Positions 2,428 to 63,280 of a stretch of 64,000 nt of DNA are shown one piece after another (position 1 is the first letter of the stretch; each line of letters starts with the position of its first letter). Position numbers and translations under genes: made by a program. The notes beneath the pieces are model-generated. The model worked only from the letters and a program-made list of their open reading frames with translations, did no database searches and was not told the origin of the DNA. Source of the stretch: Escherichia virus TH44. The stretch lies in the sequence record MT446415.1, one strand, 5' to 3'.

Positions 2428-4458
2428 ATGAGTGTAGAAGTAATTTTGGTAACTAAGTACACTATACCTGAACTTATCCAAGCCGTTAATGAAAAACAAA
2501 CGGTTGGATATTTTCCTGCTTGTGGTGTTCTTTATTTTAATAATAGATTTACCCAATTAATGACCTTAGACACAAATGCTACAGAAGTTCCATCAGCACC
2601 TTATACCATAATAGCCGAACAAAACGGTGTTTTATGGGCGGAAGCCGCTTCAGCTTTTGTGGATGCAAATCCGACAGCAGAATGCTTATCACCTGTAGAA
2701 TATATAGATTCGCTATACATGCAAGCTTATGGGGACGCAAGGGCCGCATCCGGTGGCGGTTCGACGGGGCCTAAAGGTGATACCGGTCCAATGGGTCCAA
2801 TGGGTCCTCAAGGTATTCAAGGGCCAATAGGTCCAGAAGGTCCCCAAGGTTTAAAAGGAGAAAAAGGTGATACTGGTCCTCAAGGTCCTCAAGGTCCACA
2901 GGGAGTAAAGGGAGACACAGGAGCAACCGGTTTAACTGGGGCTGAAGGGCCACAAGGACCTATAGGTTTAACGGGCCCTAGTGGAGCCCAGGGTGTTAAA
3001 GGCGATACAGGTCCTCAAGGACCCCAGGGTTTGAAGGGTGAAAAAGGTGATACCGGACCGCAAGGCCCACAAGGAGAACCAGGCACCGGCAATGGCGGTC
3101 TGAAATGGTATACAGAAGATGCTGGTAAAACTTATCCTATTATAGATGTGGACCCAAATTTATCACAAATAGGAATGGGTAATCCAGATGGTGGATACGT
3201 CCAATTAAAATTTATGACCGGAGGCAATAACGCTGGACATATAATGGCTGATGATGGGACCATGACGTTATGGAAAACCCAGCAAAGCACACTCAATCTT
3301 TCGGATAACTCGGCAGCACTGCATAACCATGCCAACGTGGAACTTGCCAATGCTGACATGACGCTTAACATGGATGGGCGTGACTTGACTGTTAGTGATG
3401 TGGATAGTATTCGTCTCCAGCTCAATGCGGACAGAAGCGCTCTGGTGGCGCCGGCGGACGTTGCAAACGTGACAGTATCCACTGAAGGCACTGCACAGGT
3501 CATGGCTAATACTTACATCCAACTGAATGCAGTAAACAACAGGTCTATAATTCAGCTAGACGAATCCGCTATCACCACAAGGTCAGGTCGCTCAAACACT
3601 GAACTCACAGATGCTACATACCGTGCCAGTGCGCCGGACTTAGACGGCCGAATTTCGTTGACTCTGGGTCCGCATGCAAAGTTCCTGGCTACACCTACCA
3701 ATACTGCAATCAATTTTAGTAAAAGTACTGTAACAACCAGAATGCTCATGGATAGTACCGGGATAAACATTGAAACATTAACCGAGGCACCTGTGTTTAT
3801 ACGGAATGTCGATAAGGTGGTTTATACGGCTGATAAAGGTGTGGCTACCATTGGACGGGGTGATTATACACAGGTCGTTGACCAAACTGGGGTAGTAATC
3901 ACTACGGGTGCAGGTAATGTAAGCACTCAAAATGCCACTGGATTTATTAAAGACACTGCCGGCGAGTATCAGTACCGCATCGACAACAAATTGGTATTCT
4001 TCTCTAGTGGGGACATTACAAGAATTAACACAGATGCTTGTGGTGTTGAACTTGATAATGGTTCAGGCATTGCTTATAATAGTGGCACAGGCGAACATAC
4101 TTTTCTTGGCGGTAACGTAGCCCCAGGTGCGGCCAATATAAGTTTAGGTGGAGCTGTTGCTCCGTGGGCTTCAATTTATCTGGATAGTTCTACCCCACGT
4201 GTAATTCAGACCAACACGGCCCACGCGGAAGTCCCAGCTGCTACAATAGCTAAGATGGCTACACTTGTCCCACAAGCTCTGAACACAGCATCCGGTGGCT
4301 TCACAATGGGATATGTTTACGAGGATGTGATTGCAGCTTTAGGCGCCGTCGATGCTGAACTCTACGGGCTTGCATGGATGGAAGGCGGGAAGAAGGTCAT
4401 TAACCCTGTTGCAATACTTGCTATGGAGGCGTTATACGTTCGTAGTAAATTAGTCTAA
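2428..4458 (+). CDS. Collagen-like repeat protein (fibre-like), about 36 G-X-Y triplets plus large C-terminal domain
   Basis: 676 aa ORF with GGAGG RBS; residues about 112-225 are uninterrupted GPQGPQG/GDTGP Gly-X-Y repeats; inserted between hoc and rnlB-side small genes. Confidence 0.8.
   Translation: MSVEVILVTKYTIPELIQAVNEKQTVGYFPACGVLYFNNRFTQLMTLDTNATEVPSAPYTIIAEQNGVLWAEAASAFVDANPTAECLSPVEYIDSLYMQAYGDARAASGGGSTGPKGDTGPMGPMGPQGIQGPIGPEGPQGLKGEKGDTGPQGPQGPQGVKGDTGATGLTGAEGPQGPIGLTGPSGAQGVKGDTGPQGPQGLKGEKGDTGPQGPQGEPGTGNGGLKWYTEDAGKTYPIIDVDPNLSQIGMGNPDGGYVQLKFMTGGNNAGHIMADDGTMTLWKTQQSTLNLSDNSAALHNHANVELANADMTLNMDGRDLTVSDVDSIRLQLNADRSALVAPADVANVTVSTEGTAQVMANTYIQLNAVNNRSIIQLDESAITTRSGRSNTELTDATYRASAPDLDGRISLTLGPHAKFLATPTNTAINFSKSTVTTRMLMDSTGINIETLTEAPVFIRNVDKVVYTADKGVATIGRGDYTQVVDQTGVVITTGAGNVSTQNATGFIKDTAGEYQYRIDNKLVFFSSGDITRINTDACGVELDNGSGIAYNSGTGEHTFLGGNVAPGAANISLGGAVAPWASIYLDSSTPRVIQTNTAHAEVPAATIAKMATLVPQALNTASGGFTMGYVYEDVIAALGAVDAELYGLAWMEGGKKVINPVAILAMEALYVRSKLV
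2761..3095 (+). repeat. Collagen-type triplet (G-X-Y) coding repeat
   Basis: ggtcctcaaggtcc-type 9-bp periodic units encoding GPQ/GDT/GEK triplets. Confidence 0.8.
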
Positions 4459-46623: not shown

Positions 46624-47178
46624 ATGAAACTGTTAAAATATTTGAGTTGGATTCTGTTAGTTCCGCTGGATTTTATCTCCATGATTCTGGCCGTTATCCT
46701 GGCTCCATTTGTAGTTCCGTTCCATAATAAAAAGACTGGTAAACTTCCGTTCGGGTTTGATTGGATGATGACTTATGATAATCCGATTGATGGTGACCGT
46801 GGCCATGTCAAACGTTGGTCAAAAATCCGAAAATGGCCATTAGGTGTTTACTTCCAACGAGTAGCCTGGCTCTGGCGAAACAAAGCATACAATTTTGCTT
46901 ACCACAAGCTCGGCCGTGATTGCAATTCAGAATTCCATTATAAAGGTAATCCGGATGTTGAATCGGGCTCCCCTGATAAAGCTCATCATGGTTGGCTCTT
47001 TATGTGGACTGATAATGCATGGGGTGTTTTTGCTTCTGTTCCTTATCTTAAGGTCGGTGGAATCACCTTTTATCTGCGTGTTTATTGTGGCTGGAAGCTC
47101 AAGAGTCTTCTGTCCCGACCTATCCCTAAGGCTATGCTCGCCTTCCATATAAATCCGTTCCGCTTTTATAAGAACTAA
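46624..47178 (+). CDS. Membrane protein (N-terminal transmembrane helices)
   Basis: Trimmed start MKLLKYLSWILLVPLDFISMILAVILAPFVVPF; RBS AAAGAGAAA. Confidence 0.6.
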   Translation: MKLLKYLSWILLVPLDFISMILAVILAPFVVPFHNKKTGKLPFGFDWMMTYDNPIDGDRGHVKRWSKIRKWPLGVYFQRVAWLWRNKAYNFAYHKLGRDCNSEFHYKGNPDVESGSPDKAHHGWLFMWTDNAWGVFASVPYLKVGGITFYLRVYCGWKLKSLLSRPIPKAMLAFHINPFRFYKN

Positions 47179-58323: not shown

Positions 58324-58619
58324 TGACCCATGAAGAGCTTTTTGACCAAATCTATTTTATTCCAAAGGTTAGGTCAGAAGATTTCGTAAAGAATTTTGAA
58401 ATCTTTAATAAAGCAAATTTCTTTGAGTATGTGTTTTTGTCTGGGCCTTTTAATGGGTCCAGATTTCGTTGCACTGCTCCGAGTATTCGCTTGATGAAGT
58501 TGGTTCCTTACTTTACTCTGGAATTTATTTCTGGACCGTGTAAGGGTATTATCACTCGTAGCCTCCTGACCTATGACCAGGATGTGCGATTAATTAGTGA
58601 CTGGAAAAAATATGTCTAA
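58320..58619 (+). CDS. Hypothetical protein
   Basis: 99 aa overlapping previous stop. Confidence 0.5.
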   Translation: MMTHEELFDQIYFIPKVRSEDFVKNFEIFNKANFFEYVFLSGPFNGSRFRCTAPSIRLMKLVPYFTLEFISGPCKGIITRSLLTYDQDVRLISDWKKYV

Positions 58620-58826
58620 ATTGACTATTGAAGGTTCTGATGCAGCCCTGAAAAGATTTGTTGAATGGTTTAATGGCCCAGGTGAACAAGACTTTCTGGA
58701 AGTCTGGAACGGTGGACAGTGGAATGGTAAAGAAATAGTTTACCCAACTACCTATATCTCCGTGCAAGGTTGGACTGAAGGCCTTCGTTTGGTAGAATAT
58801 GATATCGCAACTGGCGAGGAAGTGAA

Positions 58827-58830
<4 letters not shown>
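58612..58830 (+). CDS. Hypothetical protein
   Basis: Trimmed start MSKLTIEG; 72 aa. Confidence 0.5.
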
Positions 58831-59409
<579 letters not shown>

Positions 59410-59410
<1 letters not shown>

Positions 59411-59468
59411 TGTACAAGCAGGTTGAAATGAGTTATGATTATCCCATCAAACAAAAGGAGATAATCAT
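59410..59468 (+). promoter_or_regulatory. Early promoter with inverted repeat spanning -10 and regB start codon
   Basis: -35 GTGTAC, -10 TATGAT; ATGATTATC (59436-44) is reverse complement of GATAATCAT (59460-68) covering RBS/ATG. Confidence 0.5.
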
Positions 59469-59925
59469 GACTACTATCGATTCAAGTGTTTACATTCGCC
59501 GCAATAAACTTCGTCGCATTTTTGAAACGGAGTTCCTCAAAATTAATAATGCTATCAACAAGGCTTGTAAAGAAGCAGGCCTTGAAGCATTCTTCATTAA
59601 GTACAGTCCACACCTGTTGGACCGTGCAATCCAACGTGAAATTGATGAACAATATGTTTTTGACTTGTTTGGAAAAATCACACCACATGTAAAAGAAATC
59701 GTTGAATTCCTGGAGATGAAACCACTCCCGGAAGTTGAAGCACAAATTGACCCGAATGTGAACTATCGTCCACTTCGTCTGGAAATCACAGACAAGAACC
59801 TGTGGTTAGGAATGACAGTTAACCCAGCTCTTCCTGGGAAGTCTCCGACCATGTGTTGTCGTATGGCGTTTGTTAACTCTAATCGTCTGGAAGGAAAAAT
59901 TAGCACAAAAGTGATTTATATCTAA
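59467..59925 (+). CDS. regB: RegB endoribonuclease
   Basis: Trimmed start MTTIDSSVYIRRNKLRRIFETEF...LLDRAIQREIDEQYVF...RLEITDKNLWLG resembles recalled T4 RegB; AAGGAG RBS. Confidence 0.85.
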   Translation: MTTIDSSVYIRRNKLRRIFETEFLKINNAINKACKEAGLEAFFIKYSPHLLDRAIQREIDEQYVFDLFGKITPHVKEIVEFLEMKPLPEVEAQIDPNVNYRPLRLEITDKNLWLGMTVNPALPGKSPTMCCRMAFVNSNRLEGKISTKVIYI

Positions 59926-59935
59926 TGGGGAATTC

Positions 59936-60478
59936 ATGAAAAAAGTAATCGCCACCTTACTATTGACAGTTAGTATGTCTGCCCATAGCGTAGAGCCTAC
60001 TTTCAGTAATGAACAAATGGGGAACCTCCAATATGCTTATGCGTTTGGAGAACAGTTCCAGAAAAATGGTAAGTACAAAGAAAATCCGCACCAACATAAT
60101 GGTTTGGGATATATCATGGCTGGTTTAGCCTGGCAGGAAAGTTCTGCTGGGATTAATACTGGATTAAATAAAGATAAGCATCATGCATATGGTATATTCC
60201 AAAATTATCTTCCAACCGTGCGCGAACGCGTGAAACAGGTTGGGTGGACAATGACAGATAAAGAAATAATCAAGATGATAAGCAAGAGAGAGAACAGTGC
60301 ACGCTGGGCTTATATTGAGCTTTCATACTGGTTGAATATTCATAAGGGGGATATAAGGAAAACACTATCATCATATAACGCAGGGTGGAATGTGAAAGCT
60401 GGTAATACGTATGCTTCACAGGTCCTAGAAAAAGCTAACTACTTAAAATCACGAGGCCTATTAAAAACGGTGGATTAA
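59936..60478 (+). CDS. Secreted protein with lytic-transglycosylase-like motif
   Basis: 180 aa; signal peptide MKKVIATLLLTVSMSAHS; AWQESS...AYGIFQ resembles SLT ES...GLMQ motif. Confidence 0.6.
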   Translation: MKKVIATLLLTVSMSAHSVEPTFSNEQMGNLQYAYAFGEQFQKNGKYKENPHQHNGLGYIMAGLAWQESSAGINTGLNKDKHHAYGIFQNYLPTVRERVKQVGWTMTDKEIIKMISKRENSARWAYIELSYWLNIHKGDIRKTLSSYNAGWNVKAGNTYASQVLEKANYLKSRGLLKTVD

Positions 60479-60480
60479 AA

Positions 60481-60840
60481 ATGGTAAGAGTTATCACTTT
60501 AGCCATAGGGTTAGTATTCAGCACGGGAGGAATAGCTTCAGTACAGAGCGACGACAACAACAGCATCATAGAATATGCAACGAGGACGGCTAAAGATTAT
60601 TGCGCAGCAAGCAATGTGGATTGTGTAATCCAGTTCAGTGCCAAGCTCACCGCAGCCTATAAAGATGGCCAAAATGATGTTGAACATACGCTTTTGAAAA
60701 AGAATGTATTATCCAACAAATATGAAAAGAAACTATTTGAAATGGATTGCATTCTGTCAAGTGCAAAATATAAGGCGGCCTGCACCAGTATGGTTGACAG
60801 GTTAGTGGATTCATATAATAGAGGATTGAACTCTAAATGA
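60481..60840 (+). CDS. Secreted cysteine-containing small protein
   Basis: 119 aa; signal peptide MVRVITLAIGLVFSTGGIAS; four Cys. Confidence 0.6.
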   Translation: MVRVITLAIGLVFSTGGIASVQSDDNNSIIEYATRTAKDYCAASNVDCVIQFSAKLTAAYKDGQNDVEHTLLKKNVLSNKYEKKLFEMDCILSSAKYKAACTSMVDRLVDSYNRGLNSK

Positions 60841-61310
60841 TTACCCAGTATATTAAGGGCGATATCGTCGCCCTCTTTCTTCAAGGCAATATTATTGCAC
60901 ATGGTTGTAACTGCTTTCACACAATGGGTTCTGGCGTAGCTGGGCAGCTGGCGAAGGCTTATCCAAAAGTTTTAGAAATAGATAAAACCACTACTGAATA
61001 CGGTTCTCGTGATAAATTAGGCGATATGTCTATTGTTTTTAAACATAAGACTACAGGTTTTGGCATGTGCTATAACTTGTATACGCAATACGAACCAGGC
61101 CCTAATCTTGATTATGGTGCTTTAGTAAATTGTATGATAGAATTAAATCTACAAGCAGAAACCCTTTTGTTTAAACCGGTAATTTATATTCCTCGTATTG
61201 GTTGCGGTATTGCAGGCGGAGATTGGGATAAGGTTTCTAAATTAATCGACATGTTTACTCCTGACATTGATTTAATAGTGGTGGATTATGAGCCAAGCCC
61301 GAATTCTTAA
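60837..61310 (+). CDS. Macro-domain protein (candidate ADP-ribose binding/processing)
   Basis: 157 aa; KGDIVA...NIIAHGCNC...MGSGVAGQL and IGCGIAGGDW resemble macro-domain motifs GDIT...VNAAN...GGGV and G.G..G. Confidence 0.65.
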   Translation: MITQYIKGDIVALFLQGNIIAHGCNCFHTMGSGVAGQLAKAYPKVLEIDKTTTEYGSRDKLGDMSIVFKHKTTGFGMCYNLYTQYEPGPNLDYGALVNCMIELNLQAETLLFKPVIYIPRIGCGIAGGDWDKVSKLIDMFTPDIDLIVVDYEPSPNS

Positions 61311-61494
61311 AACGGCCAAATGTGAAAAATGTGAATGGCCAGTAATCGCAGCTTTGTGCAACGATGAAATGAATTGCGAATATGATTACTGGTGGTACTG
61401 TTCTAATAAAGGATGTTCTAATCATAAGGGTGAAGGTTTTCATTCTGGTTATTGCGAACATCCTAAATTTGTGCGATATGGGGAACCGAAATGA
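61288..61494 (+). CDS. Cys-rich small protein (zinc-ribbon-like)
   Basis: 68 aa with CxxC...CNDEMNC...CSNKGCSNH...C pattern. Confidence 0.5.
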   Translation: MSQARILKTAKCEKCEWPVIAALCNDEMNCEYDYWWYCSNKGCSNHKGEGFHSGYCEHPKFVRYGEPK

Positions 61495-61676
61495 GTTTAA
61501 GCATTAGTCAGAAAAGTAGATTATTTGAGCTTATCCATGAGCTTTTGGATGAGCATACGGAAGCAAACGCCTTTTATGATGAATACGGTCCAATAGATGC
61601 CGAACATCAGGAAGAATTTGCCAATCGATTTGATGCGAAAGAAAACGAATTAATAGCTTATGTGAATACGCTTTAA
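61491..61676 (+). CDS. Hypothetical small protein
   Basis: 61 aa, translationally coupled. Confidence 0.45.
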   Translation: MSLSISQKSRLFELIHELLDEHTEANAFYDEYGPIDAEHQEEFANRFDAKENELIAYVNTL

Positions 61677-61685
61677 GAAGGTGAT

Positions 61686-62258
61686 ATGGCGAGTTTAATT
61701 TATCATTACGCAGCAATGAATGCAGGCAAAACAGCTTCATTGCTGACTGCAGCTTATTCCTATAAAGAGCGTGGAATGAGTGTGCTTTTGCTAAAACCTG
61801 TTATTGATAATCGGGACTCGGAAGGCGAAATTAAATCACGCATCGGTATTAGCCAGGAAGCAAACCTGGTGACGGCCGACATGAACCTGTTTGAATTCTA
61901 TAAATGGGCCGAGTCTCAAAAGGATATCCATTGTGTCCTGGTCGATGAAGCTCAATTTTTGTTACCAGAGCAAATTGACCAGTTAGCTCAAGTGGTTGAT
62001 AATTACAATATCCCCGTTATGTGTTACGGGTTAAGAACAGATTTTCGGGGCCAATTATTTCCCGGTTCGGCTAGACTTCTGGCTATTTCGGATAAACTGG
62101 TTGAATTAAAGGGCGTCTGTCATTGCGGTCGGAAAGCAACCATGACCGCTCGAGTAATCGACGGTGCTGCTGTAAAGGACGGCGAGCAAGTATTGGTCGG
62201 TGGGAATGAATCGTACGTATCTTTATGCAGAAAACATTGGCTCGAATTGACAAGCTGA
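61686..62258 (+). CDS. tk: Thymidine kinase
   Basis: 190 aa; P-loop MNAGKTASLL, VDEAQF, C-terminal CHCGRKA...C..H zinc motif. Confidence 0.92.
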   Translation: MASLIYHYAAMNAGKTASLLTAAYSYKERGMSVLLLKPVIDNRDSEGEIKSRIGISQEANLVTADMNLFEFYKWAESQKDIHCVLVDEAQFLLPEQIDQLAQVVDNYNIPVMCYGLRTDFRGQLFPGSARLLAISDKLVELKGVCHCGRKATMTARVIDGAAVKDGEQVLVGGNESYVSLCRKHWLELTS

Positions 62259-62265
62259 GGTTCGC

Positions 62266-62541
62266 ATGGTATACAAGGTTTGGACGTATATCTCTATTTT
62301 GATATTCCTGGTTTTGGTTTTTGTTCCGATGCAACAAGACCAGGAAAGGTATGAGCGCGAAGTTGAAATTGTTGCAAGTACCTATCACTCGTTCAACAAA
62401 GAGTGCCCCAATAAAAACGGAATAAGCCTGCAACAAGCATACTATTTGTCAACGGTCACCAGCCCAAAACAACGGGTCTGGGTTGAACGTAATTTTGCAA
62501 GTTTATTTTCAGAGTACTGCTTTAATTTTAAACGTCTATAA
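62266..62541 (+). CDS. Small membrane protein
   Basis: 91 aa; N-terminal hydrophobic helix WTYISILIFLVLVFV. Confidence 0.5.
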   Translation: MVYKVWTYISILIFLVLVFVPMQQDQERYEREVEIVASTYHSFNKECPNKNGISLQQAYYLSTVTSPKQRVWVERNFASLFSEYCFNFKRL

Positions 62542-62613
62542 ATACAGTTACTAACTAGTATTCCGCTATGTTAAGGCTGCAAAGCGTAATCATGACCAAC
62601 AATAGGAGTCCTT

Positions 62614-62907
62614 ATGGACCTTATTCGAGGACTTTCATTAAGTCTAATAATCCTGGGCTGTTTAGGCCCAAATCTGTCCTCTGCAACAGAGGGGAAGTTT
62701 ACCCAATATGCAGATAGTGCGATGAAGATTTATTCGCAATTCAAAGAACCAAGCGTGCACCAATCCGAACAGTTCTGGGCGTTTATCAAGACTGAATGGA
62801 ACAACAAAAGCCAATGCGAAACAGAAATCACCTGCAAAAGCGATGGTAAAGCTGCGGCGAGAGAGTACGCTAAATTAATGAAGGTAAAATTGGAAGATGA
62901 AATTTGA
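62614..62907 (+). CDS. rI: RI lysis inhibition antiholin
   Basis: 97 aa; signal-anchor-like N-terminus; SEQFW.F, C..E..C and AREYAKLMKVKLE resemble recalled T4 RI. Confidence 0.75.
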   Translation: MDLIRGLSLSLIILGCLGPNLSSATEGKFTQYADSAMKIYSQFKEPSVHQSEQFWAFIKTEWNNKSQCETEITCKSDGKAAAREYAKLMKVKLEDEI

Positions 62908-63280
62908 TGATTTCGTAACGGGTCGTGGGTCTGAGGTGGATTCATATATTGGGTGGCTATTAGTCTCTTTGGCTTATTTTAAGTCTGCTCATCTTGAAAC
63001 CAAAAGTTATGCCCGCCATAAAGCTTATGATTTCTACTTCACAGAAATCCAGGGTCCACTCGACCAGTTCAGTGAGCAATGGTTAGGTTACAGCGGGAAA
63101 CAATACAAAGCTGCATTACCGTCCGCCTCGGACTTGCCGAAAGATACAATTTTGTTTTTAGATGAAATGATTAAAAGCTCGGAAAGAGTCTATAAAGTTG
63201 TACCCAAGGCTATTCAATCGACTCTGGACGATATCGTTGGAGTTTTCTTTCAGACTAAGTATCTGTTAACACTAGAGTAA
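62897..63280 (+). CDS. Hypothetical protein
   Basis: 127 aa overlapping rI stop. Confidence 0.5.
   Translation: MKFDDFVTGRGSEVDSYIGWLLVSLAYFKSAHLETKSYARHKAYDFYFTEIQGPLDQFSEQWLGYSGKQYKAALPSASDLPKDTILFLDEMIKSSERVYKVVPKAIQSTLDDIVGVFFQTKYLLTLE

Follow-up and report, generated by a model that had tools for sequence, protein, structure and literature searches.

The vs.1-vs gene pair of Escherichia virus TH44 encodes two predicted exported proteins, a putative lytic transglycosylase and a four-cysteine helical protein

The closest described counterparts of the gene pair dealt with here are vs.1 and vs of bacteriophage T4, the latter encoding the protein known as the tau factor, whose name 'valyl-tRNA synthetase modifier', implying a cytoplasmic role, has spread to hundreds of phage genomes. 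The pair itself lies at positions 59936 to 60840 of a stretch of 64,000 nucleotides from Escherichia virus TH44 (sequence record MT446415.1), the whole of which will be designated as the window. In a transposon mutagenesis of T4, both genes were classed as non-essential, vs being the T4 gene most depleted in M9 glucose medium in comparison with LB—an effect confirmed with a deletion mutant—and the authors of that study call the biological role of the modification of valyl-tRNA synthetase (ValRS) unknown (10.1101/2025.11.20.689424). With regard to vs.1 of the T4-like phages, a similarity to the SLT domain was published already in 2006 and was, as it is here, a marginal one (PMC1524935). A search of the literature revealed no biochemical characterisation of Vs.1 from T4 or of its TH44 orthologue, and a search on vs.1 and the periplasm found nothing relevant. 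Of interest is the appearance of the whole Vs family, which resembles exported proteins throughout, along with its tight linkage to a putative periplasmic murein enzyme. The two genes of the window are the following:

59936..60478, plus strand: vs.1 orthologue, encoding the 180-residue precursor of a predicted single-domain SLT-type lytic transglycosylase (phrog_600, E=2.6e-67)
60481..60840, plus strand: vs orthologue, encoding the 119-residue precursor of a predicted four-helix protein with four cysteines (phrog_1256 'valyl tRNA synthetase modifier', E=2.3e-32)

The window Vs.1 (180 residues) shares 65% identity with Vs.1 of T4 (181 residues), and the window Vs is identical in 45.5% of positions, over the full length, with Vs of T4 (115 residues), the gene order regB-vs.1-vs-tk.4 being common to both phages. 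Since the T4 locus encodes both proteins, the window pair represents the TH44 copies of T4 vs.1 and vs, an orthology that can be regarded as secure; the two genes are thus already catalogued in databases and are not new. A sequence-only reading of the window made beforehand had described two consecutive genes downstream of regB, encoding proteins with clear N-terminal signal peptides, the first of 180 residues with an E-S...GIFQ motif like that of lytic transglycosylases and the second of 119 residues with four cysteines. The two open reading frames (ORFs) are present exactly there, the leaders follow the expected pattern and are conserved in character across homologues, the motifs E68-S and G86-I-F-Q89 are found with E68, G86 and Q89 invariant, and the four cysteines are invariant as well; what that reading missed was the identity of the genes as the catalogued vs.1 and vs of T4.

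Concerning export, the signal peptides were called by rules combined with conservation, i.e. a basic n-region, an uncharged hydrophobic h-region, small residues at positions -3 and -1, and a polar start of the mature protein. The two leaders predicted in this way are as follows:

59936..59989, plus strand: predicted Sec signal peptide of Vs.1, residues 1-18, MKKVIATLLLTVSMSAHS, with cleavage after A-H-S and VEPTF thereafter
60481..60540, plus strand: predicted Sec signal peptide of Vs, residues 1-20, MVRVITLAIGLVFSTGGIAS, with VQSDD thereafter (rule-based)

By the same rules, the leader of Vs.1 reads as MKK, 16 uncharged residues and A-H-S before VE, and that of Vs as MVR, 20 uncharged residues and I-A-S before VQSDD. 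Three of the 95 non-overlapping window ORFs of at least 60 residues pass the signal-peptide filter, two of them being the neighbours vs.1 and vs, a pattern beyond that expected by chance; the third one (46624..47178) begins with MKLLKYLSWILLVPLDFISMILAVILAPFVVPF, which would suit a membrane anchor or a multi-pass protein better than a cleaved leader. The pattern of n-region, h-region and small -3/-1 residues was found in all 45 Vs.1 homologues and in 27 of the 29 homologues of Vs, the remaining two seeming to be truncated N-terminally. Both T4 proteins possess N-termini of the same signal type, that of T4 Vs being MTKILVLCIGLISFSASASA followed by DTSY. When the homologues were compared with the window proteins, the leaders exhibited an identity of 40% against 56-61% for the mature parts; a leader drifting faster than the mature part is the behaviour of functional signal peptides, such as these are predicted to be. 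In Karamvirus, the leader of Vs ends with L-S-G-C, i.e. a lipoprotein lipobox (with a weak match to LPAM_1), and because one family with two kinds of export signal would otherwise be hard to explain, Vs seems to be an exported protein. The lipobox form is exemplified by Vs from the Enterobacter phage fGh-Ecl01 (Karamvirus; L012 1501..1827), in which the lipobox MKKLFVLLIVFALSGC replaces the signal peptidase I site, and this Karamvirus type is matched at an identity of 95% or more by around 33 records. In the AlphaFold2 (AF2) model of Vs, residues 1-23 are unstructured and of low confidence; the leader would therefore lie outside the Vs fold. In view of these sequence patterns, both Vs.1 and Vs are very likely exported.

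The motifs E-S, G-x-x-Q and Y-N-x-G are the signature of family-1 lytic transglycosylases, and all three can be located in Vs.1:

60137..60145, plus strand: codons of E68-S69-S70, comprising the E-S motif with its predicted catalytic Glu, E68 and S70 being invariant in 45 sequences
60191..60205, plus strand: codons of G86-I-F-Q89-N90, SLT motif II, with G86, Q89 and N90 invariant
60374..60385, plus strand: codons of Y147-N148-A-G150, SLT motif III, with Y147, N148 and G150 invariant

The first motif occurs as W66-Q-E68-S-S70, W66 being invariant too, the second as G86-I-F-Q89-N with Y behind it, and the third in the context S-Y147-N148-A-G150, the motifs II and III being invariant or nearly so. 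In the AF2 model of Vs.1, with a predicted local distance difference test score (pLDDT) of 84, E68 is situated inside the helix 58-74. A Foldseek search of the PDB with this model yielded MltD, Slt, Slt70 or goose-type lysozyme as all of the top 18 matches (probability 0.77-1.0), the best ones being 8rhf, 6fcq, 5ohu, 1qte and 153l, with MltD and Slt scoring highest. At the level of profiles, 42 of 44 members of the Vs.1 family match Pfam SLT (best E=1.3e-7), and several relatives bear a precomputed match to PF01464. No conserved acidic residue (Asp) follows E68 in the alignment of the 45 sequences of the family and, in the lack of such a second acid, we infer that transglycosylase chemistry is favoured over that of a hydrolase. 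The mature protein would have about 18.6 kDa and an isoelectric point of about 9.5 (both computed), with neither a lipobox nor extra domains. From its motifs and family profile, Vs.1 as an SLT-type lytic transglycosylase thus appears solid at the family level, and the corresponding chemistry is likely. Its homologues are found in 2082 phage records, covering T4-like phages of enterobacteria, Acinetobacter, Aeromonas and Vibrio, and also Kuttervirus and Felixounavirus.

With regard to Vs, the AF2 model (pLDDT 76) consists of four helices (residues 24-40, 46-69, 74-90 and 95-116), and the protein contains exactly four cysteines—41, 48, 90 and 101—positioned in pairs at two of the turns:

60601..60624, plus strand: codons of C41...C48, C-x6-C at the turn between helices 1 and 2, invariant in 29 sequences
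60748..60783, plus strand: codons of C90...C101, C-x10-C at the turn between helices 3 and 4, invariant in 29 sequences

A C-terminal block, S-M-V-D-R-L-V-D-S-Y-N-R-G-L, is invariant in the same alignment. The close Vs subfamily comprises 807 phage records, and a second, more divergent one 387 records, the two being connected by hhalign E-values of 2e-5 to 0.02. The divergent form is present in RB49, RB43, the Acinetobacter phages ZZ1 and 133, the Slopekvirus-like Klebsiella phages, Gelderlandvirus and Karamvirus, and it retains the leader, the four cysteines (with loop spacings of 6 or 11, and 9) and the C-terminal motif L-x-x-x-[YF]-x-x-G-[LI]. No Pfam family was matched consistently when 28 close and 7 distant members were scanned, NCBIfam gave nothing, PDB sequence and profile searches gave no match, and the hidden Markov model of Vs found only eight matches in a set of 1.84 billion representative proteins, practically all of them short and similar to Vs; Vs has no detectable cellular or structural relatives. 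Removal of the leader would convert the T4 precursor of 13.06 kDa into a predicted mature form of 11.05 kDa (computed), that of the window protein being about 11.1 kDa. According to a structural-genomics paper (PMC8076793), T4 Vs with an N-terminal His tag is insoluble in E. coli, as might befit the uncleaved precursor of a disulfide protein; this is not specific evidence.

Across the T4-like phages, the two genes travel together. The vs gene starts directly after vs.1 in 12 of the 13 lineages sampled—T4, this window, SP18, mobillu, Merlin, CHI14, RB49, ZZ1, fGh-Ecl01, Roth01, STML-198 and, by annotation, Acinetobacter phage 133—and in most of these the vs.1 stop and the vs start overlap (TAATG or ATGA), whereas in RB43 two genes are placed between them. 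In Karamvirus, Roth01, STML-198, Merlin and ZZ1, vs is directly followed by a third gene with a signal peptide, the product of which has 126-143 residues, a signal peptide ending with NA before WEKLPGYP (WEQLTPS in ZZ1) and at least two cysteines. The product matches no Pfam family, and the gene is absent from both T4 and the window. Its positions are:

L012 1824..2243: third gene after vs
L013 1521..1913: third gene after vs
L014 1518..1919: third gene after vs
L010 2345..2725: third gene after vs
L004 2342..2773: third gene after vs

In ZZ1, the genes vs.1, vs, p0139, p0138 and rI are contiguous, all five products being predicted as exported or membrane proteins. No case of Vs without Vs.1 was met among the sampled phages; Vs.1 without Vs occurs in Kuttervirus, Felixounavirus and the Aeromonas phage AS-sw.

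The published T4 screen provides phenotypes for both genes (10.1101/2025.11.20.689424). In LB, the mean insertion counts are 26.6 for vs and 22.6 for vs.1, as compared with 179 for regB, 290 for tk.4 and 652 for vs.3 (Extended Data Table 6), so that the pair is around ten-fold below the neighbouring genes. On transfer from LB to M9, vs changed with a log2 fold change (log2FC) of -2.19 (q=0) and vs.1 with -0.87 (p=0.0055, q=0.16); on transfer from K-12 to the clinical E. coli CFE299, the values were -1.20 for vs.1 (q=0.015) and -1.04 for vs (not significant). In this screen vs and vs.1 thus act alike and unlike their neighbours. It should be pointed out that the depletion of vs.1 on CFE299 is a host-dependent phenotype of a gene without an assigned function, on which the main text of the preprint is silent.

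The explanation we favour places both proteins at the cell envelope. The genes would be carried by an early regB-vs.1-vs-tk.4 message and, as vs starts 2 nt after the vs.1 stop, their products would probably be made together, both as precursors with cleavable Sec signal peptides for delivery to the periplasm. There, the mature Vs.1 would act as a free single-domain lytic transglycosylase of family 1 (SLT/GH23), with Glu68 as the single catalytic acid, cutting the bonds between N-acetylmuramic acid and N-acetylglucosamine (MurNAc-GlcNAc) in murein; with these bonds cut, the sacculus would be remodelled during infection independently of the holin-endolysin pathway. The mature Vs would form four helices with two helix-turn loops, each probably closed by a disulfide, and it would most likely act in the envelope, either by partnering or modulating Vs.1 or through some other envelope target, and would probably not be solely a cytoplasmic modifier of ValRS. 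Taken as a whole, i.e. an exported murein enzyme Vs.1 along with Vs in the envelope, this explanation has in our view about an even chance of being right. Gene identity, motifs, fold class and the conservation of the export signals and of the linkage are observed, whereas export itself, enzymatic activity, disulfides and any contact between Vs and Vs.1 are deduced. The expectation is lower for the joint action of the two proteins: that Vs works with Vs.1 in the envelope is conceivable, although less likely than not, and it is only tentatively that we propose Vs as an exported, disulfide-bonded (in some phages lipid-anchored) envelope protein which makes up a murein-remodelling module with Vs.1 and often with a third exported protein.

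Several observations weigh against this explanation. The window Vs.1, taken alone, matches Pfam SLT (PF01464) with E=0.0088 and 16 bits, i.e. below the gathering threshold of 21.3 bits, and the Foldseek matches have E-values of only 0.04-0.6 and template modelling scores (TM-scores) of 0.41-0.54. No similarity of Vs, in sequence or in fold, was found to known lysozyme or transglycosylase inhibitors, such as Ivy, PliG, MliC, LprI and Spackle. The linkage of vs to vs.1 could be plain synteny of the T4-like early region, and Vs.1 does not need Vs, as its 2082 records stand against the 807 and 387 of the two Vs subfamilies. As for the screen, the low vs.1 counts could partly reflect polarity on vs, and the defect of vs in minimal medium fits a role in translation at least as well as one in the envelope. 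The remaining point concerns the described function itself, since T4 Vs has been described as a factor binding the host ValRS (Muller and Marchin 1975, 1977, as cited in PMC8076793), and ValRS is a cytoplasmic enzyme.

It is this last point that gives rise to the strongest alternative, in which Vs is the tau factor modifying cytoplasmic ValRS, its N-terminus being unused or used only in part for export, or binding preceding export; the adjacency of vs to vs.1 would then be an inherited gene order, and Vs.1 an unrelated periplasmic murein enzyme. This alternative is a serious one, although we would give it less than an even chance. It draws on the full-length orthology of the window Vs to T4 Vs with the phrog_1256 assignment, on the cited ValRS-factor biochemistry, on the depletion of T4 vs above all other genes in M9, where aminoacylation is limiting, and on the wide occurrence of Vs.1 without Vs. 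The purified T4 ValRS factor is of about 10 kDa, and vs mutations alter plating on valS(ts) relA hosts. Opposed to it are the canonical signal peptide in every full-length Vs homologue and the lipobox in one clade, the four invariant cysteines at helix turns together with an N-terminus outside the predicted fold, the position of vs, flanked by genes for exported proteins, and the size of the purified factor, about 10 kDa being nearer to the cleaved form (11.05 kDa) than to the precursor (13.06 kDa), which would imply its processing by signal peptidase. Judged by its sequence, Vs is very probably exported, and this is in conflict with the annotation as a modifier of cytoplasmic ValRS, although it does not disprove it. 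Neither of the two explanations is singled out by the phenotype in minimal medium, and a literature search on the ValS interactome and on the modifier found nothing relevant. The probability left over by the classical explanation and by Vs acting in the envelope together with Vs.1 falls to an exported Vs with an unrelated envelope role.

If Vs indeed works with Vs.1 in the envelope, the association with ValRS would be secondary, or would occur after breakage of cells, or would have been assigned to the wrong ORF, and the physiology of the envelope when amino acids are limiting would account for those vs phenotypes that depend on nutrients and on valS/relA. The compartment of Vs would decide how the minimal-medium phenotype is to be read, and settling it would also give a first function to Vs.1, a protein widespread in about 2,000 phage genomes of several families.

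Concerning Vs.1 alone, it might be a muramidase, i.e. a hydrolase like the goose-type lysozyme, or an inactive murein-binding protein, instead of a lytic transglycosylase. Goose-type lysozymes are indeed among its top fold matches (3mgw, 4g9s_A, 1gbs and 153l), one GenBank record names an orthologue as a lysozyme-family protein, and the Pfam SLT score of the window protein is, as mentioned above, marginal. Since the three motifs are of the family-1 lytic transglycosylase type, a conserved second acid after E68 is lacking and the bacterial MltD and Slt outscore the others in the fold search, we consider this alternative unlikely.

Somewhat less likely still is a role of the pair in superinfection exclusion or lysis timing in the manner of T4 Imm, Spackle and RI. 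The sequence-only reading had regarded superinfection exclusion, lysis control and cell-wall remodelling as typical functions of such periplasmic phage proteins; the last is plausible for Vs.1, given its SLT motifs and fold, but the first two gained no specific support. Both proteins are predicted to be periplasmic, their genes belong to the early region 1.8 kb upstream of the rI-like gene (62614..62907), and in the Acinetobacter phage ZZ1 the two genes form one contiguous run that includes rI. On the other hand, neither protein has a sequence or fold similarity to Imm, Spackle (Sp), RI or RIII, PHROG and Pfam assigning both to other families; exclusion is not a task for which an enzyme cleaving murein would be an obvious choice; and the T4 insertion mutants exhibit a general fitness cost and not a phenotype specific to exclusion. 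Two further ideas on Vs were considered and abandoned. An inhibitor of lysozymes or transglycosylases of a known type was rejected because Vs has no consistent match in Pfam and none in NCBIfam or PDB. An obligatory antidote to Vs.1, in the logic of toxin-antitoxin systems, fits poorly, given that vs.1 insertions in T4 are costly and not neutral and that Vs.1 is present in many phages without Vs.

That the signal peptides are an artefact of start codons set too far upstream, the true starts being downstream as in the SP18 RefSeq record, where vs.1 and vs are annotated 13-14 codons shorter (504 and 318 nt), is highly improbable, since the long forms have Shine-Dalgarno-like sequences at the right spacing for both ATGs and are conserved as open frames of signal-peptide character in all lineages, T4 included, and since ACG, not a start codon, stands in the window where vs of SP18 is annotated to begin. 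It should be noted that with the SP18 RefSeq starts (L001 3576..4079 and 4124..4441) the deposited proteins lack both signal peptides. Initiation within the gene, giving a Vs without leader, was ruled out as well, the next Met being residue 89 and the SP18 start position reading ACG here. The two Shine-Dalgarno-like sequences and the flanking genes are:

59927..59931, plus strand: Shine-Dalgarno-like GGGGA, 4 nt before the vs.1 ATG (sequence reading)
60469..60474, plus strand: Shine-Dalgarno-like GGTGGA for vs, within the end of vs.1 (sequence reading)
59467..59925, plus strand: regB endoribonuclease gene, directly upstream of vs.1 (Pfam REGB_T4, E=3.8e-72; phrog_1323)
60837..61310, plus strand: tk.4 macro-domain gene, downstream, its start overlapping the vs stop (ATGA; Pfam Macro, E=4.3e-8)

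The vs.1 stop codon TAA occupies 60476-60478, with a gap of 2 nt to the vs ATG (sequence reading), and a scan of 58500-63000 for promoters and terminators found no excess over shuffled sequences and no signal dividing vs.1 from vs. The T4 tk.4 has been named AdfM (adfM), an anti-DarTG2 factor (preprint 10.1101/2025.11.20.689424). The region 59400-61400 exhibits 97-98.6% DNA identity to the T4-like phages P479, P896 and Shigella phage SP18 (genus Gaprivervirus), and in relatives of the P479/SP18 type the annotated order is regB, vs.1, vs, tk.4, as in the window. Compared with SP18, P479 and several near relatives, the window is shorter by about 210 bp, the equivalent of a single small ORF located between tk.4 and tk.2 in the region of SP18 tk.3 / gp111 (window 61288..61676 versus SP18, L001, 4889..5486), and owing to this difference the megablast matches to those relatives are split in two. 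Further downstream, the window encodes at 62266..62541 a protein of 91 residues with an N-terminal membrane helix which resembles, by eye, ZZ1 p0138 (Y-E-R-E-V ... C-P-N), and thereafter at 62614..62907 the rI-like lysis-inhibition gene; the ZZ1 counterparts of both follow vs.1, vs and p0139.

As far as database names are concerned, Vs.1 orthologues are often mislabelled as 'endoribonuclease' or 'RegB-like', apparently by spread of the label from the adjoining regB (L009 1462..2004; L010 1456..2004; L006 1456..2073; L012 953..1501; L013 659..1204). One orthologue is labelled as 'C-type lysozyme/alpha-lactalbumin family', and the name of Vs is sometimes cut to 'valyl-tRNA synthetase'.

When compared with the known systems, the window Vs.1 equals T4 Vs.1 (PHROG 600) in the type of signal peptide, the SLT motifs and the position between regB and vs, with no difference of substance. 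T4 Vs (tau factor; PHROG 1256; Pfam PF26829 in precomputed annotations) shares with the window protein the four cysteines, the C-terminal block and the position between vs.1 and tk.4; its described function demands the cytoplasm, whereas the T4 sequence itself has the same signal peptide and paired cysteines. With the catalytic domain of E. coli Slt70, with Slt and MltD of P. aeruginosa and with goose-type lysozyme, Vs.1 has in common the motifs and the lysozyme-like helical fold; in contrast to Slt70 and MltD, it is a bare mature domain of 162 residues which lacks a lipid anchor as well as superhelical and LysM domains, the sequence similarity being weak. VirB1, the P19 protein of plasmids and similar proteins are small Sec-exported single-domain SLT proteins of mobile elements, thought to open murein locally. 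Vs.1 resembles them in being small, predicted as Sec-exported, single-domain and encoded by a mobile element, but its gene adjoins no genes of a transport apparatus. Spackle, Ivy, PliG, MliC and LprI/DUF1311, finally, are exported proteins of small size which bind an enzyme of the lysozyme fold, disulfides closing the loops in some of them; compared with these periplasmic inhibitors of murein hydrolases, Vs is encoded directly after an enzyme with a predicted lysozyme-like fold, namely Vs.1.

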